From Spirochaetia bacterium (GTDB lineage Bacteria; Spirochaetota; Spirochaetia; CAKZLE01), in contig OY782041.1 of NCBI GenBank assembly GCA_963677595.1, forward strand, positions 608,001 to 672,000: DNA of 64,000 nucleotides, given 5' to 3'. The translations under genes and the position numbers were made by a program. Each line of letters opens with the position of its first letter. Position 1 is the stretch's first letter. The notes under the pieces were generated by a model that was not told the DNA's origin, did not search any database, and worked only from the letters and a program-made list of their open reading frames with translations. Positions 18,457 through 43,902 of the stretch are shown piece after piece.

Positions 18457-19239
18457 CTAGAAGATACCCATGATCGCCTTGACGGCGGTCGCAGTATCTT
18501 TCTCCGGGAACAGTTCGGACCCGACGATCCCCTCGTACCCCAGCTTCTTGAGGTGCTTCATCACATTGGGGTAGTTGATCTCACCAGTCCCCGGCTCATG
18601 CCTGCCCGGGGCGTCTGCGATATGTATATGACCGATCGTATCCACGAACTCGGAGAGGGTATCACAGATTTTCCCTTCGTTGAGCTGCATGTGGTACACG
18701 TCATAGAGGATCTTCACCCTCGGTGACCCGATAAGCCGTATCATCTCTGCTGCCATCCTGGTGTTCTCCAGGAAATTCCCCACATGGTCTGTCGTGATGT
18801 TCAGCCCTTCCAGGTTACAGTTGATCCCAAACTCCTCAGCCATGACAGAGACATCCTTGAGCATATCATACATCGAACAGAGCTTGACCGTATGTGAGAG
18901 CTCGGTGTAGTGGTTCACCACCACTCCCCCGTCGCCCAAAGCATTGGAGTGGATCGTCACGCTCAATGATCCTAGTCGCTTGGCTACCTCCAGGGACTGC
19001 CGGAGAAAATCCAGATATTTCTCCTTATGGGTCGGGTCTACCAATGAATAGTCAGCATCACCATTATACCCGCAGATGCCAATCCCTGCCTCATCGGCGA
19101 GGCGTCTCACCTCGTCGATATCCTTATCTCTCCAATCCCAGAATTCCACAAAGTCGAACCCATCCTGCTTTGCTGCAGCGAAGCGTTCTTCCCATGGCAG
19201 TTCTGTATATAATGTCTCTATACAGGCTGCAGTCTTCAT
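18457..19239 (-). CDS. Hydroxypyruvate isomerase-like TIM-barrel isomerase/epimerase
   Basis: FVEFW, LEGLN, YDVYHMQ and HIHIADAPGRHEPGTGEINY motifs; overlaps the upstream iolG stop. Confidence 0.85.
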   Translation of the reverse strand: MKTAACIETLYTELPWEERFAAAKQDGFDFVEFWDWRDKDIDEVRRLADEAGIGICGYNGDADYSLVDPTHKEKYLDFLRQSLEVAKRLGSLSVTIHSNALGDGGVVVNHYTELSHTVKLCSMYDMLKDVSVMAEEFGINCNLEGLNITTDHVGNFLENTRMAAEMIRLIGSPRVKILYDVYHMQLNEGKICDTLSEFVDTIGHIHIADAPGRHEPGTGEINYPNVMKHLKKLGYEGIVGSELFPEKDTATAVKAIMGIF

Positions 19240-20255
19240 CCGTCGATCTCCGATAACTTGACTGGTCGATTCTCTTCAAGCGACTTCAGTGCGGCAAGAG
19301 CGATCACTACCGGCATCCTTCCATCATTACCTGTTACAGGTACCGGGGTATCCTCAGCGACTGCGGTAACGAATGCCTTGAACTCATTGACATATGCTGC
19401 CGTATATCGCTCAACGAAGAACAGCGGATGAAGGTCTTTCTGGATGGCTTTCCCACCGCTGAGTACAACGGTATTCGTATCCATGTTCTTTGCCTCGAGC
19501 ATACCTTCAGACCCGAACGCCTCGATCCTCTGGTCATATCCATAGACAGCCTTTCTGCTGTTGTCAATGATCCCGAGTGCCCCGTTCGCGAACTTCAGGT
19601 TGATCACACAGGTGTCGATATCACCAGCCTTCCCGATCTCGGGGTCAACCAGGACAGCGCCTGCAGCATACACCTCTTCGACTTCACAGCCGGCGATGAA
19701 CCTTACCATATCGAAGTCATGGATGGTCATATCCCTGAACAGGCCGCCTGACCGGCCGATGTACTCGATCGGTGGTGGTCCCGGATCCCGGCTTGCTATC
19801 CTGAGGAAATGCAGCTCGCCGATCTCGCCCCGGTCGATCCCGTCCCGCACTCGTGCGAAGTTCGGGTCGAATCGCCTGTTGAATCCTACCTGCAGCTTGA
19901 CACCGCACTCTTTTACCACAGCAAGGGTCTTGTCGATCTTCGCAAGATCCAGGTCTATCGGCTTCTCACAGAAGATATGCTTCCCGGCCTGCGCAGCAGC
20001 CTGGATATAGTCAGCATGGGTATCGGTACTCGAACAAATGACGACAGCATCAATCTCTGAATCTTCCAGGATATCCTCTATCCGTGATGTAGCCAGGGGA
20101 ACATCGAACTTCTTCGCTACTTCCTCAGCGACTGGAAGATATGCATCGCAGACAGCCTTCACACTCACACCATCGATTCTCTTGGTGAGTGTCTCAACAT
20201 GAAACGAACCAATCCGACCGGTTCCGATTACACCTATATTCAACGTTTGCGGCAT
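19236..20255 (-). CDS. iolG: Inositol 2-dehydrogenase (Gfo/Idh/MocA)
   Basis: GTGRIG, CEKP, GFNRRFDP, SRDPGPPP, SGGLFRDMTIHDFD and YGYDQR motifs. Confidence 0.88.
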   Translation of the reverse strand: MPQTLNIGVIGTGRIGSFHVETLTKRIDGVSVKAVCDAYLPVAEEVAKKFDVPLATSRIEDILEDSEIDAVVICSSTDTHADYIQAAAQAGKHIFCEKPIDLDLAKIDKTLAVVKECGVKLQVGFNRRFDPNFARVRDGIDRGEIGELHFLRIASRDPGPPPIEYIGRSGGLFRDMTIHDFDMVRFIAGCEVEEVYAAGAVLVDPEIGKAGDIDTCVINLKFANGALGIIDNSRKAVYGYDQRIEAFGSEGMLEAKNMDTNTVVLSGGKAIQKDLHPLFFVERYTAAYVNEFKAFVTAVAEDTPVPVTGNDGRMPVVIALAALKSLEENRPVKLSEIDG

Positions 20256-20437
20256 ACACGCCTCCTTGTTTTTTTATGATGTAACTCTAACACCAGCAAC
20301 AGGTACTGTCGATTTTTTTTTATTTCTTCCATAAATTGGTATAAGATATAGATAAGAACCATAATGCTATTAGCCTGATACAGGCTGTTAAGGTTTCCTG
20401 TTGGCTCAGGAAGTTAGGAAGAAGCGAGGTAGAACAG

Positions 20438-21403
20438 ATGGGAAAGCAGAGATTACGGATGAAAGACCTGGTAACGGAGGTGTTTCTCTATCTGTCAAAG
20501 AAGTTCGACCAGAGCAGCCTCGATTCGATCAACCAGCTGGTCGTCCCGATCGAGGAGATCCGCTCCTATCTCAATGAGAAGTACGCCATCTCCTACACGA
20601 GCAACCAGCATATACTCAATCAGTTGAAGAGTTATCAGGAGGAACTCGGGGAACCGCTCTTCAAGAAGATAAAACCGAAGAGAGACTCCGACGACCTCGC
20701 CATCACCCTTGAGAGCCAGCTGAAGAGCTACAAGCAGAAACAGCTGCTCTATATCACGCAGAAACTCAAGATCGCGAATGCTGTCTATGACAAGATCCTT
20801 CACGAGACGGAATTTCAGCCGGTTCGGCCATTGAATATCTTATTGGGAGCCGGTTCCGAGACGTTCTATGTCGCAAAGACCCTGGTTTCGGGGATCAAGG
20901 AACAGGGGATGCAGTTTCGGGTCTACACCCATAACCTGGGAGTCATCAACTACCTCATGGAGGAGCTTCCCCATCTGGGGGGACTGGAACTCTATACCCG
21001 AAATGAATGGATCGACCCGGTCAACAATCTCCTCATAGCTACTGGGGAGGATCATTACCTTACGGTGAAATACGACTACATCATACAGGCCGCGACCTTC
21101 ATCGCCGATAAGAAGCTCTATGTGGAATCCCCGAAGGAGAATATCCAGAAAGGCGATATCCTCAACCACGCACATGGGCAGAAGATCCTCATCCTCACGA
21201 AGCATGAGTTCATCTCCACCCATATCAACAGTATGGAATCGTATGGGACACTGGATCTCTATGATTATGTCATCATCCCGTATTCCAGGGAGACACAGAA
21301 CAGACAGAAGGAGTATTCAGAAATATTGAAAAAATACGTGGGCAGCGTCATCGAACCTGATATCACCCACTACAATTACATGGTGTACAAGATACTGAAA
21401 TAA
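20438..21403 (+). CDS. DeoR/GlpR-type sensor domain protein with an atypical N-terminus (probable regulator)
   Basis: KLKIA...ILLGAGSET...VYTHNL resembles the DeoR C-terminal domain; divergent from iolG. Confidence 0.55.
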   Translation: MGKQRLRMKDLVTEVFLYLSKKFDQSSLDSINQLVVPIEEIRSYLNEKYAISYTSNQHILNQLKSYQEELGEPLFKKIKPKRDSDDLAITLESQLKSYKQKQLLYITQKLKIANAVYDKILHETEFQPVRPLNILLGAGSETFYVAKTLVSGIKEQGMQFRVYTHNLGVINYLMEELPHLGGLELYTRNEWIDPVNNLLIATGEDHYLTVKYDYIIQAATFIADKKLYVESPKENIQKGDILNHAHGQKILILTKHEFISTHINSMESYGTLDLYDYVIIPYSRETQNRQKEYSEILKKYVGSVIEPDITHYNYMVYKILK

Positions 21404-21411
21404 TATGAACA

Positions 21412-21449: not shown

Positions 21450-21471
21450 CTATCTATCTGCATTCAGGACG

Positions 21472-22416
21472 CTATTTTTTCAGTGACTTCGCAGCTTCTA
21501 CGATCTTGGCTGCAGTAAGGCCGAATCGATCCTGCAGGTATCCCTGCTTGCCGACTTCACCGAACTCATCGTTCACTGCTACCCTTCTCATGAGGGTCGG
21601 CAGGTTCTCTGAGAGGTACTCACTTACCGCCCCGCCGAGTCCTCCGATCTTCTGGCCGTTCTCGCAGGTCACGATCGCACCAGTCTTCTTCGCATACTCT
21701 GCCACAAGGGCTTCGTCAAGCGGCTTGACCGTATGCATGTCGATGACAGCAGCACTGATTCCCTCTTCTGCGAGGATCTCCCGTGCCTTGAGGGCTTCGC
21801 TCACCATCACCAGACCTGTGGCGATGAGGGTCACGTCAGTCCCGTCCTCGATGACGATGCCCTTGCCCAGCTCGAAGTTCTGGTCCTCTTTGTAGATGGT
21901 CATGGCGCCTTTCCGGTGCAGCCTCATGTAGACTGGTCCCTGGTGCTCATAGACCTTCTTGGTAAGCTTGTACAGTGACACGGTATCGCAGGGCTCGACG
22001 ACCACCAGTCCGGGGATCACCCGAGTCAGGGTGATATCGCAGAACGGCATGTGGGTCCCACCGTTGAACTGGGCGGTCACTCCCGGGTCAGACCCGACGA
22101 GCTTCACATTCTGCTTCGCATAGTTCACGGATAGGAAGAACTGGTCGAACGCCCGTCGTGTGGCAAAACACCCGAAGGTAGAGGCGAAGGGGATGAACCC
22201 CTGGGAAGCGAGACCGGCAGCGACACCGACCATGTTCGCCTCAGCGACACCGGCATTGATCATCCTCTCAGGGAATTCGGTCTTGAACGCCTTGGTCCCG
22301 TTCGCTGACATCAGGTCAGCATCCATGACGACTACTTTATCATCTTCCTTTGCCAGGTCGATGAGCGTATCGGTATATACCGCTCTCATATCTGCATAGG
22401 TATCTAACTTCTTCAT
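21472..22416 (-). CDS. Transketolase C-terminal subunit (pair 2)
   Basis: DADL, GVAEANMVGVAAG, NGGTHMP and DMHTVKPLD motifs. Start placed at MKKLDTY after a GGGGGAG RBS. Confidence 0.92.
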   Translation of the reverse strand: MKKLDTYADMRAVYTDTLIDLAKEDDKVVVMDADLMSANGTKAFKTEFPERMINAGVAEANMVGVAAGLASQGFIPFASTFGCFATRRAFDQFFLSVNYAKQNVKLVGSDPGVTAQFNGGTHMPFCDITLTRVIPGLVVVEPCDTVSLYKLTKKVYEHQGPVYMRLHRKGAMTIYKEDQNFELGKGIVIEDGTDVTLIATGLVMVSEALKAREILAEEGISAAVIDMHTVKPLDEALVAEYAKKTGAIVTCENGQKIGGLGGAVSEYLSENLPTLMRRVAVNDEFGEVGKQGYLQDRFGLTAAKIVEAAKSLKK

Positions 22417-22417
22417 C

Positions 22418-23245
22418 TTACTTCTCCCCCTGCAGCACTGCGATAGCTTCTTTTGCTGTCTCATAGGTGAATGCCATGCTGTGTGAGCTAACCAACCCTT
22501 CAGCAGGTGCGAACCCCTTTGCCTTGATCGTATCGCAGACGATCATGGAAGGCCGGTCCGTGACCTTCTGGGCATTGTCGATCGCTTTCGCGATGGCTGC
22601 CACGTTATGGCCGTCGATCCTCTGGACATGCCAGCCGAACCCGTTCCACTTGGTGGTAATATCATCGATGCCCATGACATCGGCGGTCTCCCCGTCGATC
22701 TGCATCTTGTTGTAGTCGGTGAAGGCGATCATGTTCCCGAGCTTGTAGTGAGCACCGAACATGGCAGCTTCCCAAACCTGGCCTTCCTGGCTCTCACCGT
22801 CACCGATGATCAGGTAGGTATGTGCGTCGATGCCCTTCATCTTATCTGCAAGCGCGATACCCATCGCAGCTGAGGTTCCCTGTCCAAGAGACCCGGTGGT
22901 GAAATCGATCCCCGGGGTCTGGTTCATATCACAGTGGCTGGGAAGTCTGGTCCCGCCCTGGTTCAGGGTATGCAGCCATTCTTTCGGGAAGAATCCCTTG
23001 TCTGCCAGTACTGCGTAGAGAGCTGGTCCGGAGTGGCCCTTCGAGACGACCAGCTTGTCCCTGGTCTCCATCCTCGGGTTTGCAGGATCCACATTCATCT
23101 TGTCATAATAGAGCACTGTCAGGATGTCGACCACTGACATGGCTCCCCCGATGTGACCGACTCCGAGGTACCCAACCTCATCGATCGTGAGCACACGAAT
23201 ATCCTTCGCTTTCTGCTCTAGGAAGGTCCTTTGTTCTGCTTCCAT
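22418..23245 (-). CDS. Transketolase N-terminal subunit (pair 2)
   Basis: GHIGGAMS, SKGH, TGSLGQG and TPP motif GDGE...N. Confidence 0.93.
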   Translation of the reverse strand: MEAEQRTFLEQKAKDIRVLTIDEVGYLGVGHIGGAMSVVDILTVLYYDKMNVDPANPRMETRDKLVVSKGHSGPALYAVLADKGFFPKEWLHTLNQGGTRLPSHCDMNQTPGIDFTTGSLGQGTSAAMGIALADKMKGIDAHTYLIIGDGESQEGQVWEAAMFGAHYKLGNMIAFTDYNKMQIDGETADVMGIDDITTKWNGFGWHVQRIDGHNVAAIAKAIDNAQKVTDRPSMIVCDTIKAKGFAPAEGLVSSHSMAFTYETAKEAIAVLQGEK

Positions 23246-23561: not shown

Positions 23562-24509
23562 CTATTGCTTCAGTGACTTTACCGTCTCTACGATATCTTC
23601 AGCCATCAGCTTGTATCGCTTCTGCAGGTAGGCAAGGTCCCCGACCTCGCCGAACTCATCATCGATCCCCATCCGTCTCACCAGTGTGGGGTGGACTTCA
23701 GAAAGATAATCAGCCACAGAAGAGCCCAGGCCGTTGTATCGCTGGGCATTCTCGATCGTGACGACCTTCCCGGTCTTCTTCGCATACTCAAGCACCAACG
23801 CTTCATCCAGAGGCTTTATGGTGTGCATATCGATGACTGCGGCACTGATTCCTTCAGCCTCCAGCAGTTCTGCCGCCTTCACGGCAGCATCCACCATGAC
23901 CAGACCGGTCGCGATCAGGGTCACGTCGGTCCCGTCGGATAACACGATCCCCTTGCCAAGCTCGATCGGTGTCTCATCGGTATACCTGACGGTCGTCCCC
24001 TTCCGCTGGAGCCTCATGTAGGTGGATCCCACGTGGGCTGCTGACTGCTGCGTCAGCTTGTAGCAGGAGACAGAATCAGACGGCTCGAAGACCACGAGAC
24101 CCGGGACCATCTTCATCAGCCCGAAATCCTCGAACGGCATGTGCGTCCCCCCGTTCATCTGGGAGGTGATCCCCGGGTCAGTTCCTACCAGCTTCACGTT
24201 CTGCTTCGCATAGTTCGCCGAGAGGAAGAACTGGTCGAATGCCCTTCTCGAGGCAAAACAGGCAAAGGTATGGGCGAATGGGATCAGCCCCGTGGATGAC
24301 AGCCCTGCGGCGATCCCTACCATATCTGCCTCAGAGATCCCGACGTTGAAGAACCGGTCAGGATACGTCTTCTGGAACCCGCCGGAGTTCACGCAGCCTG
24401 ACAGGTCAGCATCCAGCATCACGATCCGTTCATCATCTGCTGCAAGGTCAGCCACAGCTGCTACGAACGCATCCCTCATATGATCGAATGTGGTAAAATC
24501 TTTTGCCAT
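23562..24509 (-). CDS. Transketolase C-terminal subunit (pair 1)
   Basis: DADL, GISEADMVGIAAG, NGGTHMP and DMHTIKPLD motifs; start at MAKDF. Confidence 0.92.
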   Translation of the reverse strand: MAKDFTTFDHMRDAFVAAVADLAADDERIVMLDADLSGCVNSGGFQKTYPDRFFNVGISEADMVGIAAGLSSTGLIPFAHTFACFASRRAFDQFFLSANYAKQNVKLVGTDPGITSQMNGGTHMPFEDFGLMKMVPGLVVFEPSDSVSCYKLTQQSAAHVGSTYMRLQRKGTTVRYTDETPIELGKGIVLSDGTDVTLIATGLVMVDAAVKAAELLEAEGISAAVIDMHTIKPLDEALVLEYAKKTGKVVTIENAQRYNGLGSSVADYLSEVHPTLVRRMGIDDEFGEVGDLAYLQKRYKLMAEDIVETVKSLKQ

Positions 24510-24513
24510 ATCC

Positions 24514-25344
24514 CTACACCTCACTCTCTAGTTTCTCGATGGCTGCAGCTGCCTGCTCCGCACTGATTCCCATACTGTGGTTGGCCTGGATGCCTTCACC
24601 GAAGCAGTAGCCCTTACTCTTGATCGTGTCAAGCACGATCATCGAAGGCTTGTCAGTCACCTGCTGAGCCGCCTCGATCGCGGCATCAAGCGCCTGGAAA
24701 TCATGTCCGTCGATCTTCTGCACATGCCAGCCGAAGCTCTTCCATTTATCATCAAGCGGGTCCATCCCGATGATGTTGTCGCAGTAGTCGTCAAGCTGCT
24801 GCTTGTTGTAGTCGGTGAAGGCGATCAGTTTCCCCAGCTTGAACTGCGCTGCAGTCATCGCGGCTTCCCAGACCTGCCCCTCCTGGCTCTCACCGTCGCC
24901 GAGGACAAGGTAGGTGAACCGGTCTATCTTCTGGTATCGGTTCCCCATTGCGATACCCACTGCCGCAGATGAACCCTGCCCAAGGGAACCGGTAGTGAAG
25001 TCCACTCCCGGGGTCTTGTTCATATCACAGTGGCTCGGCAGGTTCGTCCCGCCCCTGTTCAGCGTATCGAGCCATTCTACGGGAAAGAATCCCTTGTCTG
25101 CCAGGGTCGCATAGACAGCAGGCCCGGAATGGCCCTTGGAGACGACGAGCTTGTCCCGATCCCGCATCTTCGGGTCCTTCGGGTCGACCTTCATCCATTT
25201 GTGGTAGAGGATCGTCAACAGTTCAACTATCGACATCGCTCCCCCGATATGGCCTGCACCAAGATTCGCGATCTCATCTATCGTCAGCTTCCTGATATCC
25301 TTCGCTTTCTTCTTCAAAGCCGTCACTTCAGCTTCATTCAGCAT
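24514..25344 (-). CDS. Transketolase N-terminal subunit (pair 1)
   Basis: GHIGGAMS, SKGH, TGSLGQG and GDGESQEG...DYN motifs. Confidence 0.93.
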   Translation of the reverse strand: MLNEAEVTALKKKAKDIRKLTIDEIANLGAGHIGGAMSIVELLTILYHKWMKVDPKDPKMRDRDKLVVSKGHSGPAVYATLADKGFFPVEWLDTLNRGGTNLPSHCDMNKTPGVDFTTGSLGQGSSAAVGIAMGNRYQKIDRFTYLVLGDGESQEGQVWEAAMTAAQFKLGKLIAFTDYNKQQLDDYCDNIIGMDPLDDKWKSFGWHVQKIDGHDFQALDAAIEAAQQVTDKPSMIVLDTIKSKGYCFGEGIQANHSMGISAEQAAAAIEKLESEV

Positions 25345-25442: not shown

Positions 25443-26699
25443 TTATTTCAAACCTGCTGCTTTCTCCATCGCTGAGATAAGCGGCAGCTTCTTCCCTGAT
25501 ACATACCGGACCATGGCACCTCCTGCGGTGCAGACATAGCTCATCTTCTGTATATCCGTGAATCTGGCAGCAGCGTTCACGCTGTCCCCTCCACCGACCA
25601 CGGTAAATCCTGGGGCATCAGCGATTGCTTTCCAGATCTCTCTCGTCCCCACCTCGAAGGTGGGGTCCTCGAACACGCCCGCAGGCCCGTTCACGAAGAC
25701 TGTTCCGGCTCCATTGATGCTCTCCCGGTAGGAGGCGATCGTCTTCTCGCCGACATCGAGGTACATCAGTTCGGCAGGCATATCTGCTACTGCGATCTCT
25801 TTTCGTTCCCCGTCAGCTTCATAGGCCAGGTCTTCAGGCATCCTGATCTTCCCCGGAAATTTCTCCAGGTACTCCCGTGCAGGTGCTATGAATGTATCCA
25901 GGCCCTTCTTCGCCAGGAACTCATCGACCTTGCTGCCAAGGGACTGTCCCGAGGCGATGAGGAACACTTCCCCCGTCACCCCGCAGGTCAGGATCTCATC
26001 TGCTGTCCCGTTTGATAACACCTGCTCCATCATACCGAACGCATCCGAGATCTTCGCACCTCCAAGCACGAACACCGACGGGTGGGAAGGGGCAGTCATC
26101 ACCTGGTTCAGGGCCGATACCTCGTTAAAGAACAGCGGTCCCGCAGCACTCGGCAGCAGCTCCTGGAAGGCCACCATGCTCGGGCAGTTCCGGTGCGCAG
26201 CCGCGAACGCGTCATTGACGTAGAGGTCGAACAGCGGGGCCAATGATCTCACCAGCCAGGTGTCGAGCATCTCTTCCGGTTTCAGCTTCACCGCATCCTC
26301 GAAGGTCGAGATCTCCTCGCACAGATACCGCAGGTTCCCCAGCAGTACCGCTTCACCCTCATCGAGTGCCTCTACCGCGCTCTGCGCCATCGGCCCGCAT
26401 ACATCGTCGATGTACCTGACCTTCCGGCCGAGTTTCTGACTCAGCTTCTGCGCATGCTCTCTCAACGGGATCAGGTTCTGGTAATCGAGCGTATCCCCCT
26501 GGTGCGCGATCAACGCAAGCTTCGCCCCGTTATCGAGCAGCCACTTCACCGTCGGCACGCTCTTCTCCAGCCGGTTCTCGTTGACTATTGCCTTCGTCTT
26601 CGGGTCCACCGGGGAGTTGATGTCCACCCGCAGCAATACCCGCTTACCCGAGACATCAAATTCCTCCATCGGCTTGAACCCTAACGTATGCTCTTTCAT
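25443..26699 (-). CDS. pgk: Phosphoglycerate kinase-family protein (archaeal-like, altered substrate site)
   Basis: LRVDINSP, NDAFAAAHR, LGGAKISD, NGPAGVFE, GGGDS and CTAGGA motifs; HQGD in place of the usual H(L/Q)GR. Confidence 0.9.
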   Translation of the reverse strand: MKEHTLGFKPMEEFDVSGKRVLLRVDINSPVDPKTKAIVNENRLEKSVPTVKWLLDNGAKLALIAHQGDTLDYQNLIPLREHAQKLSQKLGRKVRYIDDVCGPMAQSAVEALDEGEAVLLGNLRYLCEEISTFEDAVKLKPEEMLDTWLVRSLAPLFDLYVNDAFAAAHRNCPSMVAFQELLPSAAGPLFFNEVSALNQVMTAPSHPSVFVLGGAKISDAFGMMEQVLSNGTADEILTCGVTGEVFLIASGQSLGSKVDEFLAKKGLDTFIAPAREYLEKFPGKIRMPEDLAYEADGERKEIAVADMPAELMYLDVGEKTIASYRESINGAGTVFVNGPAGVFEDPTFEVGTREIWKAIADAPGFTVVGGGDSVNAAARFTDIQKMSYVCTAGGAMVRYVSGKKLPLISAMEKAAGLK

Positions 26700-27726: not shown

Positions 27727-27880
27727 CCGCTCTCCCTCCATATACTATGATTCCGTTATTGGTTACCTCATAAAAGCAATCATTTCACTCGTTGTATTCA
27801 GTATGGGGACTATGGGTACACCCAAATGGTTGGTCACATCAGACCATTTCAGAAGTGACCTTCTTCATAATCTCTGCATA

Positions 27881-27931
27881 CTGTACTAACATCAGACATT
27901 CTGACTATATCATAAAATGACGAAAAGTCAA
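27881..27931 (-). promoter_or_regulatory. sigma70-type promoter of the gap-pgk-tkt operon, with a downstream candidate iol operator
   Basis: On -: TTGACT-16-TATAGT with a TGn extension, then AATGTCTGATGTTAGTACAG (15/20 match to the iolD-promoter motif). Confidence 0.6.
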
Positions 27932-31065: not shown

Positions 31066-31146
31066 GAACCATCCTCCCTGCATTCTCTCATCTGTATAGC
31101 TGGTTGTGGAATACCACATGTATAAGACCAACCATGTTTTGTGTTA

Positions 31147-31310: not shown

Positions 31311-31348
31311 TTGACTTCTTGTAATCATATTGTATGATAATCATACGT
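31311..31348 (+). promoter_or_regulatory. Promoter and candidate operator of the isomerase-iolH operon
   Basis: TTGACT-16-TATGAT overlapped by ATTGTATGATAATCATACGT; also contains TCATA-N3-TATGA. Confidence 0.6.
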
Positions 31349-31381
31349 ATTAAAATAAAAATACGAAAAGCGAGGATAGCT

Positions 31382-34926: not shown

Positions 34927-36431
34927 TTTTTTCCTCCCGTAGCAAGACGCATGATACTCTCCTGAGATGCATCTTTGCGGTCTATAATTCCTTTTAGTTT
35001 TCCTTCATGCATGACTGCAATCCTATCACTCATGCCCAGTATCTCCGGCAGCTCGGATGAGATCATGATGACCGCCATCCCGTTTCCAGCAAGCTCACTG
35101 AGCAGGCGGTGAATCTCTGATTTAGCTCCGACATCGATACCGCGGGTAGGTTCATCTACGATCAGCACATTGACAGGCCGCATCAACCATTTGCCGATAA
35201 CAACCTTCTGCTGGTTACCCCCGCTGAGGTTCTTCACAGCCACATCCAGGCTGTGTGTCTTGATCTGGTAGCGTTCCTTGGCAGCTTCAGCCTCTTCACG
35301 CTCATACTTCATATTGAGCAGACCATACTTGGTGAACATCTTCAGGCTTGCAAGTGAGAGGTTCTCGAGAATGGGCCGTTCAAGCACCAAACCGATGGCC
35401 TTCCTGTCCTCGGGAAGATATACCAGCCCTTTCTCGATCGCATGGTACGGCTTCGTTCCCTCGTACGGGAGTCCTTCGAGAAACATCTCCCCGGAATCCA
35501 GCGGATCAAGACCAAAGATAGCACGAGCTACTTCAGTACGGCCGGCTCCCATGAGGCCTGAGAACCCAATGATCTCACCATGTCGTACAGTGAAGCTGAC
35601 ATCCTCAAAGACGCCTTCCCTGTTCAAGCCCTTTGCCTCGAAAGCGATATCGCCGATCTCAGTCTCCATCTTTGGGAACAGGTTCGTTAACTCACGTCCG
35701 ACCATCATGGTGATCAGTTCATCCTCTGTCATATCGGTGATCGGACGGGTATCGACCCACGTTCCGTCACGCATGACCGTGATATCATCAGAGATCTCGA
35801 AGATCTCATTCAGCTTATGTGATATATAGACGAACGTGATACCTTTGGCCTTCAGATCGTTGATGAGCTGGAACAGCGTCGCGACTTCCGTCTCGGTGAT
35901 CGCTGATGTAGGCTCATCGAGTACGATCAGCGTCGACCCGCGGTTGATACCTTTCGAGATCTCGACCATCTGCTGCTGTGAGACACTCAATGTCCTCAGC
36001 GGAGCCTTCGGTGAGAAATCTCCCAGGCCGACTGATGCCAGGTAGCCTTTCGTCTCCTCGTTCATCGCCTTGATGTCAGTGAATATCTTCTTGGAATCAA
36101 GCATCTCGCGGCCAAGGAACATATTCTCGGCGATCGTCATATCAGGGACAAGGTTCAACTCCTGGTATACGGTCGAGATCCCTGCGAGGAGTGAATCCCT
36201 CGGGTTCTGGATATGGAGCAGATTCCCGTCGAAGTAGATCTCGCCGCTGTCAGGGATGTGCTCTCCGGCCAGGACCTTCATGAGGGTGGACTTCCCTGCA
36301 CCGTTCTCCCCGATGAGGGCGTGTACAGTTCCCGGTCGAACATTGAATGTAACGTTATCAACAGCTTTTACACCAGGAAATGTTTTCGTTATATTGCGCA
36401 TCTCCAATAAAAACTCTTCGTTGGCAGCCAA
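34923..36431 (-). CDS. Monosaccharide/inositol ABC transporter ATP-binding protein (RbsA/MglA type)
   Basis: GENGAGKST, DEPT, LSGGNQQK and DEPTRGIDVGAK motifs; TTG start. Confidence 0.93.
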   Translation of the reverse strand: MAANEEFLLEMRNITKTFPGVKAVDNVTFNVRPGTVHALIGENGAGKSTLMKVLAGEHIPDSGEIYFDGNLLHIQNPRDSLLAGISTVYQELNLVPDMTIAENMFLGREMLDSKKIFTDIKAMNEETKGYLASVGLGDFSPKAPLRTLSVSQQQMVEISKGINRGSTLIVLDEPTSAITETEVATLFQLINDLKAKGITFVYISHKLNEIFEISDDITVMRDGTWVDTRPITDMTEDELITMMVGRELTNLFPKMETEIGDIAFEAKGLNREGVFEDVSFTVRHGEIIGFSGLMGAGRTEVARAIFGLDPLDSGEMFLEGLPYEGTKPYHAIEKGLVYLPEDRKAIGLVLERPILENLSLASLKMFTKYGLLNMKYEREEAEAAKERYQIKTHSLDVAVKNLSGGNQQKVVIGKWLMRPVNVLIVDEPTRGIDVGAKSEIHRLLSELAGNGMAVIMISSELPEILGMSDRIAVMHEGKLKGIIDRKDASQESIMRLATGGKK

Positions 36432-36617
36432 TTGTAACCTCCTTTTGGCAATGCAGTCTCCCCTGCTGCAGAAACAAGGTTCACTGCATCACTTCGTAGT
36501 GAATTGAACCGAACAATCTCAGCTGGGCCATCAAGATATGCCCGAAAACTCCAGGTCATGCACCTGATAGTCTAGCCCAGACTATTCAATCCAGCAGATC
36601 GGCATAGGCATGAGGGA

Positions 36618-36651
36618 GGATATGCCGGAACAGTAGTATTCCGGCATATCC
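36618..36651 (-). other. Strong intercistronic hairpin after the SBP gene (mRNA stabiliser or partial terminator)
   Basis: GGATATGCCGGAA-CAGTAGTA-TTCCGGCATATCC 13-bp stem. Confidence 0.7.
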
Positions 36652-36680
36652 CATAACCATTTGCCTTTGGTGTTTACCTA

Positions 36681-37601
36681 TTAATCATCCGGGTTGGTCG
36701 AATCGATCGGGTAGAACGGAACGATATATCGCTGGCCGCCGCCTTCACCGTTTGCCATCATCTGGGCAACTTCAGCACCCTTGGCGCCCTGGCCCTTAGC
36801 ATCCTGGACTACAGACATGGTCATCTCACCAGCCTTGAGAGCTGAACGAGCACCATCGGTACCATCAATACCGGTGACCATCACGCCTTCAAGACGACCT
36901 GCGCCCTTCAGGGCTTCGATAGCACCAAGAGCCATCTGGTCATTTGCAGCCACGACGAGGTCGATCTCAGGGAATGCCTGGATCCAGTCTTCCATGACGT
37001 TCATACCAAGGTCTCTTCGGTAGTCACCGGTCTGGCTTGCAAGGAGCTCGATGTCAGGTCGCTTGTCGATCAGGTTATCCATGACAGCACCTTTTCGTGC
37101 GATCGAGTGCTCCATTCCTGGTGAACCTTCAAGGATCACGACCTTACCACCTTGTGGGACCTTGTCAATGAAGTAGTTTGCCTGGATAAGACCAGCATCA
37201 TAGTTCATACTACCGACATATGCGTACATAGGTCCTTCGTAGTTACACTCTGAATTGACACCGACAACGGGGATACCGGCTTCGATCGCTTCCTTCACTA
37301 CAGGCACAAGGGCTTCAGCATCGAGGAAACTGATTGCGATGACATCGACCTGCTGGGAGATGAATGTCTCAACGGCAGCGACCTGCTGGGCTGTATCCAG
37401 GTTAGGGTCGATCACATTGACCTTCATACCGAGAGCCTCTGCAGCTGCTACGAACTCATTCTTCAATCCATTCTGGAACACATCAGCAGCACCATGGAAC
37501 GTATACCCTACTGTGAGCGTACCATCGTCTTTCTGACCTTGAGCGAACACCCCACCCGTAACCAGTACGAGCACCACAAGAACAACTAAAAACTTTTTCA
37601 T
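36681..37601 (-). CDS. Sugar ABC transporter substrate-binding protein (RbsB-like, probably inositol)
   Basis: Signal peptide, AGIPVV, ANDQMALGA and GIDG motifs. Confidence 0.9.
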   Translation of the reverse strand: MKKFLVVLVVLVLVTGGVFAQGQKDDGTLTVGYTFHGAADVFQNGLKNEFVAAAEALGMKVNVIDPNLDTAQQVAAVETFISQQVDVIAISFLDAEALVPVVKEAIEAGIPVVGVNSECNYEGPMYAYVGSMNYDAGLIQANYFIDKVPQGGKVVILEGSPGMEHSIARKGAVMDNLIDKRPDIELLASQTGDYRRDLGMNVMEDWIQAFPEIDLVVAANDQMALGAIEALKGAGRLEGVMVTGIDGTDGARSALKAGEMTMSVVQDAKGQGAKGAEVAQMMANGEGGGQRYIVPFYPIDSTNPDD

Positions 37602-37809: not shown

Positions 37810-38817
37810 TCATGCATAGAATTCCGGCATCTTCTCCACTGACATCTGAACGATTGCGCCGCTTTCCCTTGCCTGGGAACATAACTCTGCATTCTTGGAA
37901 GCGAGATACCCATCCCAGGAGTTGGGGCCGTCTACCCTGTCTGCCTTACTGGAATTGATCCAGGCCTGAAGCTCGGTATCATACGCATCAGTGAAGCGCA
38001 CCCTCCAGTCTTCAGGGATGGCTACTGATTCGTAGAAATCGAACTTGATCGTCGGGGTAGCAGGGGTCGGCAGGTTCACTGTACCGTTCTCACAGCAGAC
38101 CTCAGTCTTGATATCATATCCGAAGTTATTGGCAACGAAGATCTCAAGGTCGATCCTGATCCCGGATTCAGTCTCAAGCAGCAGGATCTGCGGGTCATGC
38201 AGTTTTGCATGGGCATTCCGGTTCTTCTTGGGCATGATCACCTGTGCAGAGACATACTCCTCACCAAGGAGCCATCTAAGCACATCAAGCTCATGTACTG
38301 CAGTATTCTCGATCTCCATCTCGGTAGTGTACATGTCAGGGACTGCAGCATTCCTGTGTGCACAGTGCAGCATCAGCGGTTCCCCGAGTCGACCTGAATC
38401 GAGGATCTCCTTCAGCTGGGTATATGATTTATCATATCTTCTCATGTAACCGACCTGGACAAGCTTCTTCCCGCCGGCGATCTCTGCATCGACGATACGA
38501 CGTGCCCCGTCTGCCTTGTCGGCGATCGGCTTCTCACAGAATACGTACTTCCCTGCTTTCAGGGAGGCCATGACATACTGTTCATGGGTCGGGTCCCAGG
38601 ATGTGATGATGACCGCATCGATACCATCATCCGCGATCATTGCTTCCCCGTCCTCGAACACCTTGAGGTCCCACTCGGATGCTATCTTCTTCGCATTCTC
38701 GATATTCACATCGCTGACTGCTACGACTGTACCACCCTGAAGTCGGGCATTGATCCGCTCGATATGTGATTGACCGATCATCCCGGCCCCTACGACGCCA
38801 ATTCTCAAATCACTCAT
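37810..38817 (-). CDS. iolG: Inositol 2-dehydrogenase (Bacillus IolG-like)
   Basis: GAGMIG, FCEKP, VQVGYMRRYD, HCAHRN, AVHELD and YDIKTEV motifs. Confidence 0.9.
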   Translation of the reverse strand: MSDLRIGVVGAGMIGQSHIERINARLQGGTVVAVSDVNIENAKKIASEWDLKVFEDGEAMIADDGIDAVIITSWDPTHEQYVMASLKAGKYVFCEKPIADKADGARRIVDAEIAGGKKLVQVGYMRRYDKSYTQLKEILDSGRLGEPLMLHCAHRNAAVPDMYTTEMEIENTAVHELDVLRWLLGEEYVSAQVIMPKKNRNAHAKLHDPQILLLETESGIRIDLEIFVANNFGYDIKTEVCCENGTVNLPTPATPTIKFDFYESVAIPEDWRVRFTDAYDTELQAWINSSKADRVDGPNSWDGYLASKNAELCSQARESGAIVQMSVEKMPEFYA

Positions 38818-38836
38818 AATAACCACCATCCTTTTA

Positions 38837-39009: not shown

Positions 39010-40944
39010 TCAATACTGACGTGCCTTGTCAATATTCTCTTTCATCTCCTTGAATGCCTTCTGGACTGATTCGGAACGTGATACCTCTGCAGTACCAACC
39101 CTCCACCAGCCCAGATATCCGTTCGACATGGTCTTGGGAAGGACTTTTACATCGATGAGCGTCGATACCGTCTGTGTCTTCGCATCACGAAGGGCCTCTA
39201 CCAACTCCTGCTCACTTTTCACGGTGTAGGTCTTACATCCGTAAGCCTCAGCACTCTTGGCGAAGTCTATGGCAACCAGGGAGCCATCGAGCTTGCCTGT
39301 CTTCGGGTTTCTATGCCGCATCTCTGTCCCGAAACTACCGGATCCATTCTCCATCTGCAGGTTGTTGATGCAGCCGAAACCGATGTTGTCGAACAGGACG
39401 ACATTGATCTTCTGCCCCTCCTGCACGGAGGTGATCAGCTCAGAATGCAGCATGATATACGATCCATCACCGACAAAGGCATACACCTCTTTATCCGGTC
39501 TAGCCAGCTTTGCGCCTAACGTTGCCGCGATCTCATATCCCATGCAGGAATACCCGTATTCCATATGGTAGGTGTCAGCCTGCTTTGGCCTCCACATTCG
39601 CTGCAGGTCACCCGGCAGGCTGCCTGCGGCACCAACTACGATCGCATCGTCATCGAGTTCGGCATCAAGGATTCCCAGGACCCTTGTCTGGGTCAGTTCG
39701 GACCCGAGGACCTCTGCATACTCTGCAAGTTCCTCATCAAGGTCGCCGGGGATCTCAGGGATGAAGTCCCCATCTCTCTTGATGCTGTAAAGTCTCTGGA
39801 GTTCATCAGCCCACTGCTTCCGGACCGTGTCGATATAACTTCGTTCGTAGGAGCTCTTCCAGCCTTCAGCCTTCAGTGCTTCCCTCAGGGCGATCAGGGA
39901 TTCTTTTGCATCCCCTACTACCTGGACAGCATCCAGTTTATATGCATCGAAACTGCAGATGTTCAGGTTCACATATTTGACGTCCGGATTCGAATAGATC
40001 CATTTCGAGGCAGTCGTGAAGTCAGTGTAGCGGGTCCCGACACCGATGACCAGGTCGACCTCGTGGGCGATGGTATTGGCAGCCAGGTTCCCGGTCGTCC
40101 CTACTCCTCCCAGATTCAGGTAATGATCGAAGGGGATAGCACTCTTCCCTGCCTGCGTCTCTGCGAACGGGATACCGAACTCTTCCGCGAAGGCCTGGAA
40201 CTCGGCAGCTGCCTCAGAGTAGCGGACTCCGCCTCCACAGATCAGCATGACCTTCTTCCCCTCTTGTATGCGTTTTGCAGCAGCTTCGATCGCAGCCGCT
40301 ACCGGCGGCCTCCGTTCGATCCGGTGCACCCGGCGCTGGAAGAAATGTTCAGGGTAATCATAAGCTTCTCCCTGCACGTCCTGCGGGAGGGCGATGGTGA
40401 CAGTCCCAGTCTCAGCAGGGTCTGTCAACACACGCATCGCACTGATCGCAGCAGACATGAGCTGCTCAGGCCTGGTGACTCTGTCCCAGTATTTACTGAT
40501 TGCCCTGAATGCATCATTCGTCGAGATGGACAGGTCAGACGGCTGCTCCATCTGCTGGAGGACAGGGTCAGGCTGGCGGGTAGCGAACACGTCTCCCGGC
40601 AGCAGGAGCAGCGGTATCCTGTTCGCTGTTGCGGTAGCGGCTGCCGTCACCATATTGGCTGATCCCGGACCGACCGAGGCTGAACAGGCAATGATCTGTC
40701 GTCGATGGTTCTGCTTGGCGAAACCAGTGGCGATATGGGCCATTCCCTGTTCATTACGTCCCTGGTACATGATCAGGTCGCCTGGGTTCTCTTCCAGGGC
40801 CTGGCCGATTCCTACGACGTTCCCGTGACCGAAGATCGTGAAGACCCCCTTCACGAATTTCTGCTGTTCTCCGTCAAACTCAACATACTGGTTGTCAAGG
40901 AATCGTATAAGTGCTTGAGCGACTGTTAATCTTACTGTTTTCAT
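39010..40944 (-). CDS. iolD: 3D-(3,5/4)-trihydroxycyclohexane-1,2-dione acylhydrolase
   Basis: [46 protein letters not shown] and GDGSY TPP motif. Confidence 0.97.
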
Positions 40945-40969
40945 AGAGCCTCTCCAGTGAATTATCTGT

Positions 40970-41008: not shown

Positions 41009-41030
41009 CCTTTATTTTCAGATATTCTGC

Positions 41031-41840
41031 TCAATGATCGTACTTAGCTGTCCTTGCGACTATTTTGGGGTGAACAGCCCTTACATCGCCTCCTTCCTCT
41101 GGAACAGCAATCCCAAGAAGATGCAGTATTCGGTCGAAATGGTCCCAATGGCGTTTCATCGCCATATCAGTCGGCTGGTTCTCCAGTGAGTCGATCATCT
41201 GCGCATGATCCTCAGCAACTGCACCGAGATCATTGATCTTCAGGTAGGTAAGCAGTATCTCGTTCGTCAGGAAAGCCTGCAGGGTATGATACATGCCTAC
41301 GAAGAGCCGGTTCTTCCCTGCCTCGATGATCGTCTCATGGAATGAGTAATCGGCTTGGACCATCTGGTCGACCTCACCGGTCTCTGCGATTTCCCGCATA
41401 TGGTCGATGATCTCCCGCAGCTTAGCAAGGCTCTCGAGAGCAGCTGGTTCCTTCTGCCCAAGATCCTGGATGAAATGGCGGAAGGAGATGAACTCAATAG
41501 CCTCGCGGAGTTCATAGACATCCCGCATATCGTCTTCACCGAGCACGAGGGCCCAAGTGATGGCTTCAAGGGAAATATTCGCCCGGTCCTGGATGAAGGT
41601 ACCTTTTGCTGCCTTGGATTCCACGACCCCGAGATGGTGGAAGACCTTCAGTGCTTCCCGGATAGAGGATCTGCCGACCTGGAACATCTCGGCAAGTTCC
41701 TGCTCGGTTGGCAGCCTGTCACCGGGTTTATATGTCCCTGAAGCGATAAGCTCCTTGACCCGGTCCATCACCTGTCCCACGACCGTATTCTTGTGAATCG
41801 GTTTTTGGATAATGTTCTTTCTGTCTGTTCTTGTGTTCAT
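41031..41840 (-). CDS. GntR/FadR family transcriptional regulator (probable iol regulator)
   Basis: PGDRLPTEQELAEMFQVGRSSIREAL wHTH; FCD domain ADYSFH...N...H. Confidence 0.92.
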   Translation of the reverse strand: MNTRTDRKNIIQKPIHKNTVVGQVMDRVKELIASGTYKPGDRLPTEQELAEMFQVGRSSIREALKVFHHLGVVESKAAKGTFIQDRANISLEAITWALVLGEDDMRDVYELREAIEFISFRHFIQDLGQKEPAALESLAKLREIIDHMREIAETGEVDQMVQADYSFHETIIEAGKNRLFVGMYHTLQAFLTNEILLTYLKINDLGAVAEDHAQMIDSLENQPTDMAMKRHWDHFDRILHLLGIAVPEEGGDVRAVHPKIVARTAKYDH

Positions 41841-42146
41841 GCTGCATGTTATCCTATTTGTGAAATATGGAGAAATTCTCCTAGTAAGATTTCACTACAT
41901 AATTCCCGAACTGTCAACTATTATTTGTCAGACAATAACACTAACACGCAAAAGATCGTGGATTCTACTACCTTTAATAGTGTTCACTCTCGTTTACCCA
42001 AGGTGAGCTTCGCCTTGTTCCGGCACGGTAATTTTAAAAAAAGATTGCATTTTTAAATGTATTGTCATACTATATGATAATACTTGCAAAGCGAGAGCTT
42101 CTTCGGTATCTCTTAGGATAACAATATGGAGAAAGGGAGATATACA

Positions 42147-43052
42147 ATGATTACACTTGACAGCAGTAAGGTTCACCTTGCCTGTGCGCCTATCGCATGG
42201 ACCAATGATGATATGCCCGAACTAGGCGGGAAGAACACCTTTGAACAGACGATCAGCGAGATGGCACTTGCCGGGTTTTCCGGCAGTGAAGTCGGTGGAA
42301 AGTACCCGACAGACAGTGCCATCCTGAACAAGGCTCTCAGTCTGAGGAACATGACCATCTGCAATGCATGGTTCTCGACGGAGTTCACCTCGAAGCCGGC
42401 TGAAGAGACCTACCAGGCATTCACCAAATGGGCTGAATTCCTCAAGTCAGTAGGTGCCCGGGTCATCGGGTGCTCTGAACAGGGAAACTCGATACAGGGG
42501 ACATCAAAACCGGTGTTCTTCGAGAAGCCGGTGTACACCGAGGAAGAATGGGATCGCGTAACCAGCGGTATGAATCGCCTTGGGGCGATCGCCAAGGACC
42601 TGGGAATGAAGTGCAGCTTCCACCATCACATGGGGACCGGGGTCCAGACGCCGAGTGAGATAGATCGGTTCATGGATATGACTAACGATGATGTGTACCT
42701 TCTCTTCGATTCAGGTCATCTGATGTACTCGGAGCAGGACCCAAATGCGGCATATAAGGTCCTGAACACCTATGTGGACAGGGTAGCCCATGTGCACCTG
42801 AAAGACTGCCGGATGGAATTGGTGAAACGGGTCTATGATGAGCGTCTCAGCTTTCTTGACGGCGTCAGGATGGGAACCTTCACGGTCCCTGGGGATGGGG
42901 ACCTTGATTTTGACCCGATCTTCAAGACGCTCCAGGAAGCTTCGTATGAAGGCTGGATGGTCGTTGAGGCTGAGCAGGACCCTGATATAGCGAATCCCTT
43001 CGAGTACGCACTCAAGGCCCGCACCTACATCAGGGAGCATGCCGGACTGTAG
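42147..43052 (+). CDS. iolE: Myo-inosose-2 dehydratase
   Basis: APIAWTNDDMP, HHHMGT, FDSGH, HVHLKD, FTVPGDG and VVEAEQDP motifs. Confidence 0.95.
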   Translation: MITLDSSKVHLACAPIAWTNDDMPELGGKNTFEQTISEMALAGFSGSEVGGKYPTDSAILNKALSLRNMTICNAWFSTEFTSKPAEETYQAFTKWAEFLKSVGARVIGCSEQGNSIQGTSKPVFFEKPVYTEEEWDRVTSGMNRLGAIAKDLGMKCSFHHHMGTGVQTPSEIDRFMDMTNDDVYLLFDSGHLMYSEQDPNAAYKVLNTYVDRVAHVHLKDCRMELVKRVYDERLSFLDGVRMGTFTVPGDGDLDFDPIFKTLQEASYEGWMVVEAEQDPDIANPFEYALKARTYIREHAGL

Positions 43053-43083
43053 CCCGGCCCAGAAAAAAAGGAAGGAGTAACGA

Positions 43084-43902
43084 ATGGGAACTGATATTAA
43101 ATTCGCATTGAATCATATGGTGTGTCCGAGCTTCAGCTATGAGCGGTTCACACAAGGAGCGAAAGCACTGGGCATGTCTGCGGTCGAGTTCCGCAACGAC
43201 ATTGGCGATATGAGTGTGAACAGCATGGAAAGTGCAAAAGCAGCAGGTCAGGCTGCACGTGCAGCAGGACTGAAGGTACTCACGATAAATGCACTCTATC
43301 CCTTCAATATCTGGAACGATGAACGGGCTGATCAGGCAAAAACGATCGGGGACTTTGCCCAAGAACTGGGCGCCCAGGGCCTTGTACTCTGTCCGCTTGT
43401 CGACGCAGACTATGACTTCAGTCAGGAAGATAGACAAGAGCAACTGAAGCAGGCTCTGATCGGTCTCAAGGGGATCCTCCAGGAAAGGAATCTGCAGGGC
43501 TTTGTAGAAGTCCTGGGATTCCCCATCTCCTCCATTCGATTCAAGAGAGATGCTGTCTCGGCGATCAGGGAACTTGGGTTCGAGGGCACATTCGCCCTGG
43601 TACACGACACATTCCACCATAAAGTTGCTGGTGAGGAAGAGTTCTTTGCAGGGAATACTGGCCTGGTTCATATCTCGGGGGTCGAAGACACAACTGTCGC
43701 CTACGACCAGATGCAGGATTCCCACCGTATCCTGATCGGGGATCAGGACCGCCTCGATAACGCCGGGCAGATCAAGACGCTCGCTGAAGGCGGGTATGAG
43801 GGGTATTTCTCATTCGAGCCGTTCAGCGAACCCGTTTGGAACCTGGAAGACCCGATCGGAGCGACACGGGAGAGCATGGACTTCATCCTCTCGAAGCTCT
43901 GA
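43084..43902 (+). CDS. IolI-like inosose isomerase (TIM barrel)
   Basis: FALNHM, VEFRND, TINALYPFN, VHDTFHH, VHISGV and SFEPF motifs; directly downstream of iolE. Confidence 0.8.
   Translation: MGTDIKFALNHMVCPSFSYERFTQGAKALGMSAVEFRNDIGDMSVNSMESAKAAGQAARAAGLKVLTINALYPFNIWNDERADQAKTIGDFAQELGAQGLVLCPLVDADYDFSQEDRQEQLKQALIGLKGILQERNLQGFVEVLGFPISSIRFKRDAVSAIRELGFEGTFALVHDTFHHKVAGEEEFFAGNTGLVHISGVEDTTVAYDQMQDSHRILIGDQDRLDNAGQIKTLAEGGYEGYFSFEPFSEPVWNLEDPIGATRESMDFILSKL

Follow-up and report, generated by a model that had tools for sequence, protein, structure and literature searches.

An inositol gene cluster with an embedded gap2-pgk-transketolase block in a Spirochaetia bacterium and a predicted kinase-free ending of inositol breakdown

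Genes of the inositol cluster and the embedded block

The window analysed here is a stretch of 64,000 nucleotides (positions 608001-672000) from the genome of a Spirochaetia bacterium, referred to as G000 (4.33 Mb, 1 contig, 95.4% complete, 6.3% contamination); feature coordinates count from window position 1. Its region 18457-46111 carries three inositol-dehydrogenase-like genes, iolE, iolD, an IolB-family gene, the genes of an ABC importer and a GntR regulator and several isomerase genes. Within this inositol (iol) cluster lies a minus-strand block predicted to encode homologues of a class II glyceraldehyde-3-phosphate dehydrogenase (GAPDH; Gap2) and of an archaeal-like phosphoglycerate kinase (PGK; Pgk) as well as two split transketolases (TK), in the order gap2-pgk-tktN1-tktC1-tktN2-tktC2 (27741 to 21472). 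A first-pass annotation of the window had listed the upper inositol genes, the importer, the regulator and this block, all of which were recovered at the positions given below. As judged from the sequences, the block quite likely allows inositol breakdown to end without a kinase: TK would split 2-deoxy-5-keto-D-gluconate (DKG), and Gap2 and Pgk would make D-malate and ATP. The block comprises:

27904..27931, minus strand: sigma70-like promoter match upstream of gap2 (10/12, extended -10; consensus match only)
26710..27741, minus strand: Gap2, class II GAPDH homologue (start likely at about 27726; NF003251 389 against 185, TIGR01546 298 against 233)
25443..26699, minus strand: Pgk, archaeal-like PGK homologue (PF00162; best PDB match 2cun)
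24514..25344, minus strand: transketolase N-subunit 1, tktN1 (domain match and motif check)
23562..24524, minus strand: transketolase C-subunit 1, tktC1, with the Asp/Asn change (start likely at about 24509; 87% identical to TktC of the L027 iol operon)
22418..23245, minus strand: transketolase N-subunit 2, tktN2, GDG motif for thiamine diphosphate intact (domain match and motif check)
21472..22464, minus strand: transketolase C-subunit 2, tktC2 (start likely at about 22413; Asp and Asn where the canonical acceptor site has His and Asp)

The first-pass annotation had placed the block inside the iol locus. It is indeed embedded in the cluster, but it does not form one operon with the iol genes, since it has its own promoter-like site and an opposite-strand gene lies between it and iolB. 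In relatives, gap2-pgk-tkt and iol genes occur in one same-strand run (e.g. in loci L020, L044, L111 and L117 of the survey described below). The other genes of the cluster are:

18457..19239, minus strand: TIM-barrel sugar isomerase/epimerase, IolI/Hyi-like (PF01261; top NCBIfam matches under cut-off; overlaps the iolG end)
19236..20255, minus strand: iolG, inositol 2-dehydrogenase (TIGR04380 465.6 against a cut-off of 355)
20438..21403, plus strand: candidate DeoR-type regulator, divergent open reading frame (ORF) of 321 amino acids (no Pfam match; Atlas language-model features are DeoRC clusters, 0.96 for the first, spirochaete DeoR-like)
28088..29251, plus strand: Gfo/IDH/MocA oxidoreductase, divergent from gap2 (domain match)
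29267..30121, minus strand: aldo/keto reductase, DkgA-like (under NCBIfam cut-off)
30223..31131, minus strand: IolB-type 5-deoxyglucuronate isomerase (start likely at about 31065; PF04962, KduI/IolB family; TIGR04378 85.8 against a cut-off of 205)
31334-32323 and 32388-33281, plus strand: TIM-barrel isomerase/epimerase pair (PF01261)
33958..37601, minus strand: sugar ABC importer with permease, ATPase and binding protein (domain and NCBIfam scans)
37810..38829, minus strand: second inositol dehydrogenase, Bacillus IolG-like (449.5 against a cut-off of 540)
39010..40944, minus strand: iolD, THcHDO hydrolase (TIGR04377 955 against a cut-off of 715)
41031..41840, minus strand: GntR/FCD regulator (domain match)
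42126..43052, plus strand: iolE, myo-inosose-2 dehydratase (TIGR04379 388 against a cut-off of 290)
43084..43902, plus strand: TIM-barrel isomerase, IolI-like (PF01261)
45098..46111, minus strand: third inositol dehydrogenase, beyond the span named in the first-pass annotation (TIGR04380 364.9 against a cut-off of 355)

The IolB-like protein shares 42-49% identity with the IolB proteins of intact iol operons. According to its language-model features the ORF at 20438-21403 is probably a divergent DeoR-type regulator, which is offered as a lead only; its single-sequence fold (pLDDT 42) was too poor for use. The cluster is flanked by two convergent genes of the URO-D/methyltransferase family (15717-16964, plus strand; 17044-18282, minus strand) and an AraC regulator gene. 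At window positions of about 46000-64000, where a sulfatase, a ROK regulator and a tripartite tricarboxylate transporter are encoded, the GC content drops from about 0.53 to 0.41-0.47, and this part was possibly acquired separately.

The 39 ORFs scanned from 8676 to 52250 include neither a PfkB kinase nor a class II aldolase nor an aldehyde dehydrogenase, which agrees with the earlier statement that iolC, iolJ and iolA are missing from the window. The genome-wide search also revealed no IolC and no IolA over cut-off in G000: none of the 13 PfkB matches passed as IolC (best 150 against 300 bits; 25-29% identity to a true IolC), and the best IolA/MMSDH match in the genome reached 261 against a cut-off of 448.5. 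A DUF2090 aldolase is likewise absent from the G000 genome. The best of its six class II aldolases shares 34% identity with an iolC-linked one, and family membership alone does not decide on an IolJ function.

Linkage to inositol genes and exclusion of iolC in other genomes

The surroundings of gap2 were surveyed in the best 80 of 567 matches in GTDB genomes, read with up to 10 kb on either side; some of these 80 loci share one genome and many are cut by contig ends. Neighbouring genes were predicted to encode PGK (73 loci), LarA (51), TktN (28), malic enzyme (26), IolD (24), IolE (24) and IolB (21). In 30 of the 80 loci, belonging to Spirochaetota, Bacillota and Chloroflexota, iolB, iolD or iolE lies within 10 kb, and these iol-linked loci contain PGK in 28, TK in 17 and LarA in 23 cases. 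Clostridium magnum (L020) possesses the complete same-strand run mae-gap2-pgk-tktN-tktC-iolB-iolD-iolE-iolG-larA. An IolC over cut-off was found in one of the 30 iol-linked gap2 genomes, which has a separate iolB-aldolase-iolC cluster; IolC hits of 176-228 bits, below the cut-off and found in gap2 and transaldolase genomes, were counted as presumably other PfkB kinases.

A second sample, starting from iolD and drawn independently of gap2, comprised 300 genomes of the phylum of G000 and 400 Clostridia (the class of C. magnum), with the centre genomes and two unscored genomes left out. The iolD gene was present in 6 of the 300 genomes of the phylum sample and in 20 of the 398 scored Clostridia. 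Of the resulting 26 genomes 14 have iolC and 8 have gap2, with an overlap of 0 (Fisher p 3e-4, a significance overstated by kinship, as are all Fisher p values among genomes that are not independent). The anti-correlation of gap2 with iolC that had been anticipated was thus observed (0/14 genomes with iolC against 8/12 without), and so was its co-occurrence with iolD, which among the 398 Clostridia was detected in 6 of the 11 gap2-positive genomes against 14 of the 387 others. By the same count, roughly every second carrier puts the module to another use. Of the 8 genomes with gap2 and iolD, 7 have gap2 in the iol region, together with the TK and LarA genes except in one genome, where these accompany a second gap2 copy; in another of the 7 the cluster is spread over the ends of two contigs.

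In the eighth, G599, and in the four genomes without iolC and gap2, a transaldolase-like gene and an aldehyde dehydrogenase gene were found beside iolB/iolD; in the four of these five genomes that were checked by hidden Markov models, the transaldolase was below cut-off. Since iolC, gap2 or a transaldolase-like gene is present throughout, each of the 26 iolD genomes appears to have one of three endings. The transaldolase-type, iolC-free ending of 5 of the 26 genomes is accompanied by IolA/MMSDH or a SauS-like acylating dehydrogenase (L097, L098, L099, L110 and L112; G397, G429, G499, G599 and G267). For G000 itself a transaldolase ending was rejected, the best match to an inositol-type transaldolase sharing 30% identity.

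G000 contains four copies of gap2-pgk (Gap2 95-98%, Pgk 87-92% identical), and of the 44-67 changes between its gap2 copies 34-52 fall on third positions. Around the second copy (928000-953000; L001, L002) there are a truncated tktN1, genes for a PfkB kinase, a class II aldolase and a transketolase with the canonical motif, another IolB-like gene (52% to IolB of C. magnum) and two binding-protein genes with identical starts. The DNA of this copy at 939 kb matches that of the window as far as the first part of tktN1, so that an iol-type locus was likely its source. The third copy (2739010-2756000; L157, L003; also L023, L069, L074) belongs to a conserved locus with genes for a TRAP transporter, an Ldh_2 dehydrogenase, an IolN-like hydrolase, a FucI-like isomerase, an HpcH/GarL aldolase, an Asp/Glu-racemase-like protein and a Mar-type LarA. 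The Asp/Glu-racemase-like protein was not assigned as a malate racemase, since a conserved Cys of the active-site type is present at one site but missing at the second. The fourth copy (3544239-3558030; L004; L109) is accompanied by genes for a DeoR regulator, a PfkB kinase, a class II aldolase, a Zn-dehydrogenase, TRAP and ABC transporters and a lactonase; it is missing at the syntenic place in G001, and the gap2 of G599 has a similar set of genes around it.

In C. magnum and Acetobacterium (L018, L058, L059, L063 and L065) gap2-pgk-mae-larA is found with xanthine-dehydrogenase-, 3-hydroxyacyl-dehydrogenase-, acetoin-dehydrogenase-like and metallo-hydrolase genes, and L162 has the acetoin-dehydrogenase-like genes only. 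Our guess for the L018-type loci is that a maltol-type 4-pyrone might be hydroxylated and opened and then reduced to 3,4-dihydroxy-5-oxohexanoate, the splitting of which would give acetyl-CoA and the same C4 aldehyde as predicted below for DKG. The tie of gap2-pgk to inositol asserted by the first-pass annotation holds as far as linkage to iol genes is concerned, but the pair is a movable module that occurs four times in G000 and is not restricted to inositol.

Predicted route and alternative explanations

Gap2 retains the SCNTT catalytic motif with Cys148 and the RRVAD (RRxAD) motif. Its Asp40, which we take to be a NAD signature, and its Gln200 are invariant in 79/79 relatives, Gln200 being His in two archaeal alignments. 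Pgk retains D26, N28, R43, H66, R124 and R170. Its residue 69 is Asp or Ser in 73/73 relatives (Asp69 in the window) and never basic, compared with an Arg in housekeeping PGK that is presumably part of the basic patch binding the 3-phosphate of 3-phosphoglycerate, and this change fits a substrate in which a carboxylate replaces the 3-phosphate. Pgk is predicted to be an ATP-forming malate kinase and Gap2 a phosphorylating 3-hydroxy-4-oxobutanoate dehydrogenase. Since a housekeeping GAPDH-I/PGK/TPI operon is located at 3.787 Mb of G000, gap2-pgk is additional to the housekeeping set.

Publications are cited here by PMC number. The expressed class II GAPDH CDQ83_07070 of Pseudoclostridium thermosuccinogenes showed no activity with NAD+ or NADP+, whereas both class I enzymes were active (PMC6543838). 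The reverse primer for CDQ83_07070 matches 9 metagenome stretches, in one of which (L117) the forward primer is found as well. Both primers match exactly the ends of the L117 gap2 (340 amino acids), which is 75.5% identical to the window Gap2 and heads the run gap2-pgk-tktN-tktC-iolB-iolD-iolE-iolG.

A conventional explanation would regard Gap2 and Pgk as glycolytic isozymes and the TKs as part of the pentose phosphate pathway, with DKG being cleaved via an unrecognised PfkB kinase and a class II aldolase encoded elsewhere. It could draw on the 13 PfkB and 6 class II aldolase genes of G000, on the scores of Gap2 over the class II GAPDH cut-offs and on the generic aldolase proposed to stand in for IolJ in D. 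welbionis (PMC13311982). Taking into account that a housekeeping GAPDH-I/PGK is already present, that the Gap2 orthologue was inactive on glyceraldehyde 3-phosphate (G3P; PMC6543838), that the basic Pgk residue is gone in 73/73 relatives and that there is no IolA to take the malonate semialdehyde, we consider this explanation highly improbable. It would furthermore leave the LarA and malic enzyme neighbours and the exclusion of iolC unaccounted for.

In both window TktC and in 32/32 linked TktC, Asp and Asn replace the canonical His and Asp, which are kept in the solved split TK 6YAJ and in the canonical-motif transketolase of G000 at 941k. We assume that these acceptor-site positions correspond to H461/D469 in E. 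coli transketolase numbering and bind the phosphate and hydroxyl of the acceptor. The two window pairs share 60-64% identity with each other, and their nearest G000 paralogue (59-62%), which has the same Asp/Asn change, comes from a locus resembling the sulfo-TK variant; the closest titled relatives are from spirochaetes. In the tree, 31 of the 32 linked TktC and the sulfo-TK-like paralogue form one clade (34 rows, 95/95), and the paralogue also groups with the window TKs in a clade of 8 rows (100/99). This kinship points to a TK clade specialised for anionic, unphosphorylated ketoses.

TK is absent within 10 kb in 13 of the 30 iol-linked gap2 loci. The same TK subfamily was found elsewhere in 15/15 genomes (those 13 and two from the iolD-first sample; best matches 49-67% identity) and in only 2 of 19 genomes with an IolC or transaldolase ending; all 30 TK loci returned by the subfamily search share the Asp/Asn motif. 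Given the kinship of the clade with sulfo-TK, a TK encoded elsewhere in a genome could instead serve sulfoquinovose (SQ). G000 encodes at 1449000-1472050 (L156, L007) a glucosidase over the cut-off of NF007746, which we take to be the YihQ-type label, together with an SftI-like isomerase, a TK pair, RpiB, a SauS-like acylating dehydrogenase, a CoA ligase and a DASS transporter. This gene set at 1.45-1.47 Mb corresponds to the sulfo-TK variant set of PMC12890257.

The conversion of myo-inositol to DKG by IolG, IolE, IolD and IolB is established chemistry, and the genes were found. With its C3/C4 in the D-threo geometry of xylulose and fructose DKG may be a TK donor. TktN/TktC would move its C5-C6 onto G3P or ribose-5-phosphate, giving a ketose of the pentose phosphate pathway and (R)-3-hydroxy-4-oxobutanoate. 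By stereochemical reasoning, DKG as a ketose is 5-deoxy-D-fructuronate, which minus two carbons leaves an aldehyde configured like D-glyceraldehyde and, once oxidised, (R)-, i.e. D-malate. Gap2 would then use NAD+ and phosphate to form D-malyl-1-phosphate, from which Pgk and ADP would give D-malate and ATP. The malyl-phosphate intermediate of the first-pass annotation is retained in its acyl-phosphate chemistry, but with 3-hydroxy-4-oxobutanoate as the aldehyde the acyl phosphate would be located at malate C1; the engineered malyl-phosphate route carries it elsewhere. In most carriers a nickel-pincer racemase of the LarAH6 type would convert D-malate to L-malate and malic enzyme would yield pyruvate, both genes having been identified and the flux being presumed. 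For G000 this last step is uncertain, its LarA and malic enzyme genes lying elsewhere and the cofactor genes being missing. Gap2-Pgk, alone or with LarA and malic enzyme, would represent a movable module into which other carbon-carbon-cleaving enzymes likely feed as well.

The predicted product D-malate fits the malate-racemase-type LarA in 51/80 gap2 loci and the malic enzyme in 26/80. All 51 neighbouring LarA contain the His-Lys (H-K) pair, given as the malate-racemase signature in section 6 of PMC11770544. Of the 16 neighbouring LarA compared with the LarAH6 malate racemase model NF052593, 10 exceeded the cut-off, and the one searched against solved structures matched the malate racemase Mar2 best.

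The chemistry may also be right and the substrate different, in that TK would cleave a 2-hydroxylated 5-keto-hexonate, Gap2/Pgk would convert tartrate semialdehyde to tartrate and LarA would be a tartrate epimerase. An earlier proposal has TK cleave 5-keto-D-gluconate to tartrate semialdehyde (PMC7970118), tartrate epimerisation is a side activity of malate racemase (PMC11770544), and other gap2 copies of G000 adjoin genes for Zn-dehydrogenases, an IolN-like hydrolase and HpcH. Nevertheless, this seems very unlikely, since iol operons such as L117 and L020 supply only iolG/E/D/B upstream, whose product is a 2-deoxy acid, malic enzyme lies beside 26/80 loci, and the tartrate activity of LarAH62 is 57- to 180-fold below that with malate (PMC11770544).

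A number of observations weigh against the predicted cleavage of DKG to D-malate. Three of the four gap2-pgk copies of G000 (939 kb, 2.75 Mb, 3.56 Mb) are located without iolD among other sugar-acid genes and 50 of the 80 surveyed gap2 loci have no nearby iol gene, so that the enzymes may in fact act on more or on other substrates. G059 carries both routes, and the gap2 of G599 is unlinked to the iol genes of that genome. The window IolB-like protein is under the TIGR04378 cut-off (85.8 against 205), and the inactivity of CDQ83_07070 is a crude-extract negative (PMC6543838). Apart from its 13 PfkB kinases and 6 class II aldolases as such, G000 has one locus in which genes for an IolB-like protein, a PfkB kinase and an aldolase lie together. 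The ATP saving claimed in the first-pass annotation exists by substrate-level bookkeeping to acetate and CO2, but is small (about 10 against 9 ATP per 3 inositol), because the dihydroxyacetone phosphate (DHAP) branch is lost.

Further points of this kind concern the fate of D-malate. Six of the 16 LarA tested, from spirochaetes, match NF052593 best yet below the cut-off. The Mar-type LarA of G000 (2739010-2740248; 57% to L077) reaches 404 against 500 bits and, like the malic enzyme (1250263; 80% to L019), is unlinked to the iol cluster. The genes larB, larC and larE were not found in the G000 genome, in which another cluster occupies the place syntenic to their position in the same-genus G001; LarC was detected in only 13 of the 30 iol+gap2 genomes and LarB in 0/5 of those tested. 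Without the nickel-pincer cofactor genes, D-malate might be disposed of in G000 by way of cofactor scavenging, a side activity of LeuB, which G000 encodes and which could remove D-malate, or export. G000 has six LarA homologues without larB/C/E, and LarA-bearing gap2 operons also occur where larC was not found (G043, G044, G048, G051, G069; larB 0/5), which suggests cofactor scavenging or another way of LarA activation.

These observations bear on a further explanation, according to which the route runs in relatives and in G000 is incomplete or has its block serving another substrate, the racemase cofactor genes being lost. The lack of larB/C/E in G000, compared with larC in 3/3 family relatives tested, and the unlinked LarA and malic enzyme genes would fit this scenario. 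We give it very little weight, as every gene of the block is intact, the four gap2 copies differ mostly at third positions, many other iol+gap2 genomes without larC keep the operon and LeuB could remove D-malate.

Significance and comparison with known systems

A literature search, with subscription journals mostly outside its coverage, yielded no description of the predicted route from DKG to D-malate. If true, it would fill a gap in the textbook pathway for many anaerobes, and surveys requiring iolC would miss these inositol users; four core iol genes have been treated as essential (PMC9430895), and iolG/E/D/B are reported to be more widespread than iolC/J (PMC13617567). It would represent a new substrate-level phosphorylation and provide a function for bacterial class II GAPDH, for which functional evidence was stated to be nonexistent in bacteria (PMC6543838); at E <= 1e-60, a threshold that also admits archaeal enzymes, the window Gap2 has 4107 relatives. 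It would also provide a physiological D-malate source for malate racemases, the in vivo role of Mar2/LarAH6 having been left open (PMC7583248). Table rows in the supplement of the latter study assign malic enzyme (15%) to one LarA group and PGK and GAPDH to others, without suggesting a pathway.

In a broader sense, and with somewhat less confidence than for the window itself, inositol breakdown probably has three interchangeable endings mirroring those of sulfoglycolysis (kinase/aldolase, transaldolase, transketolase). The TK ending would comprise two natural, hitherto undescribed enzymes, namely a D-malate kinase that forms ATP and a phosphorylating dehydrogenase of 3-hydroxy-4-oxobutanoate, as the true identity of bacterial class II GAPDH/PGK pairs, and the module would also serve other C-C lyases and feed D-malate to nickel-pincer malate racemases. 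The 'novel inositol pathway' of D. welbionis was ruled out as the same route, since its split is C3/C3, with DKG-6-phosphate detected (PMC13311982).

The canonical pathway of Bacillus subtilis (IolG-IolE-IolD-IolB-IolC-IolJ-IolA) shares with the window the four upper steps to DKG, ABC import and a regulator. In contrast to it, G000 lacks IolC and IolA over cut-off, and the aldol split into C3 and C3 (DHAP and malonate semialdehyde) is predicted to be replaced by a C4/C2 TK cleavage of the unphosphorylated acid leading to D-malate. The tartrate route from 5-keto-D-gluconate (PMC7970118) is similar in that TK would cleave an unphosphorylated 5-keto-hexonate and the resulting C4 aldehyde-acid would be oxidised to a dicarboxylate, but is an unconfirmed proposal outside inositol catabolism with a non-phosphorylating dehydrogenase and no ATP.

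With the archaeal class II GAPDH and PGK (PDB 2czc, 1cf2, 1b7g; 2cun) the window pair has family scores over cut-off and the catalytic motifs in common. It differs in Asp40/Gln200 (79/79) and the non-basic Pgk residue 69 (73/73), in not being the housekeeping pair and in having an orthologue inactive on G3P (PMC6543838). The malate racemase Mar2/LarAH6 (PDB 6d6z; PMC7583248) resembles the LarA that is the usual neighbour of gap2-pgk in relatives, whereas the window has no copy and the G000 copy is below cut-off with the cofactor genes missing.

The comparison with the sulfo-TK pathway (SqwGH; variant SqwD and SqwKL; PMC12890257) was made via the sulfo-TK-like paralogue of G000 (59-62%). Sulfoquinovosidase, SQ isomerase and SqwI are absent among the window ORFs scanned, and look-alikes are located with a third TK pair at 1.45-1.47 Mb of G000. 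In contrast to the sulfo-TK pathway, the window route would employ a carboxylate instead of a sulfonate donor, a single cleavage without SqwI and an acyl phosphate (GAPDH/PGK fold) instead of an acyl-CoA. Both would have in common that a split TK transfers C2 to G3P from a ketose that is anionic and non-phosphorylated and, in the case of the variant (PMC12890257), that the aldehyde is oxidised with a gain of ATP.

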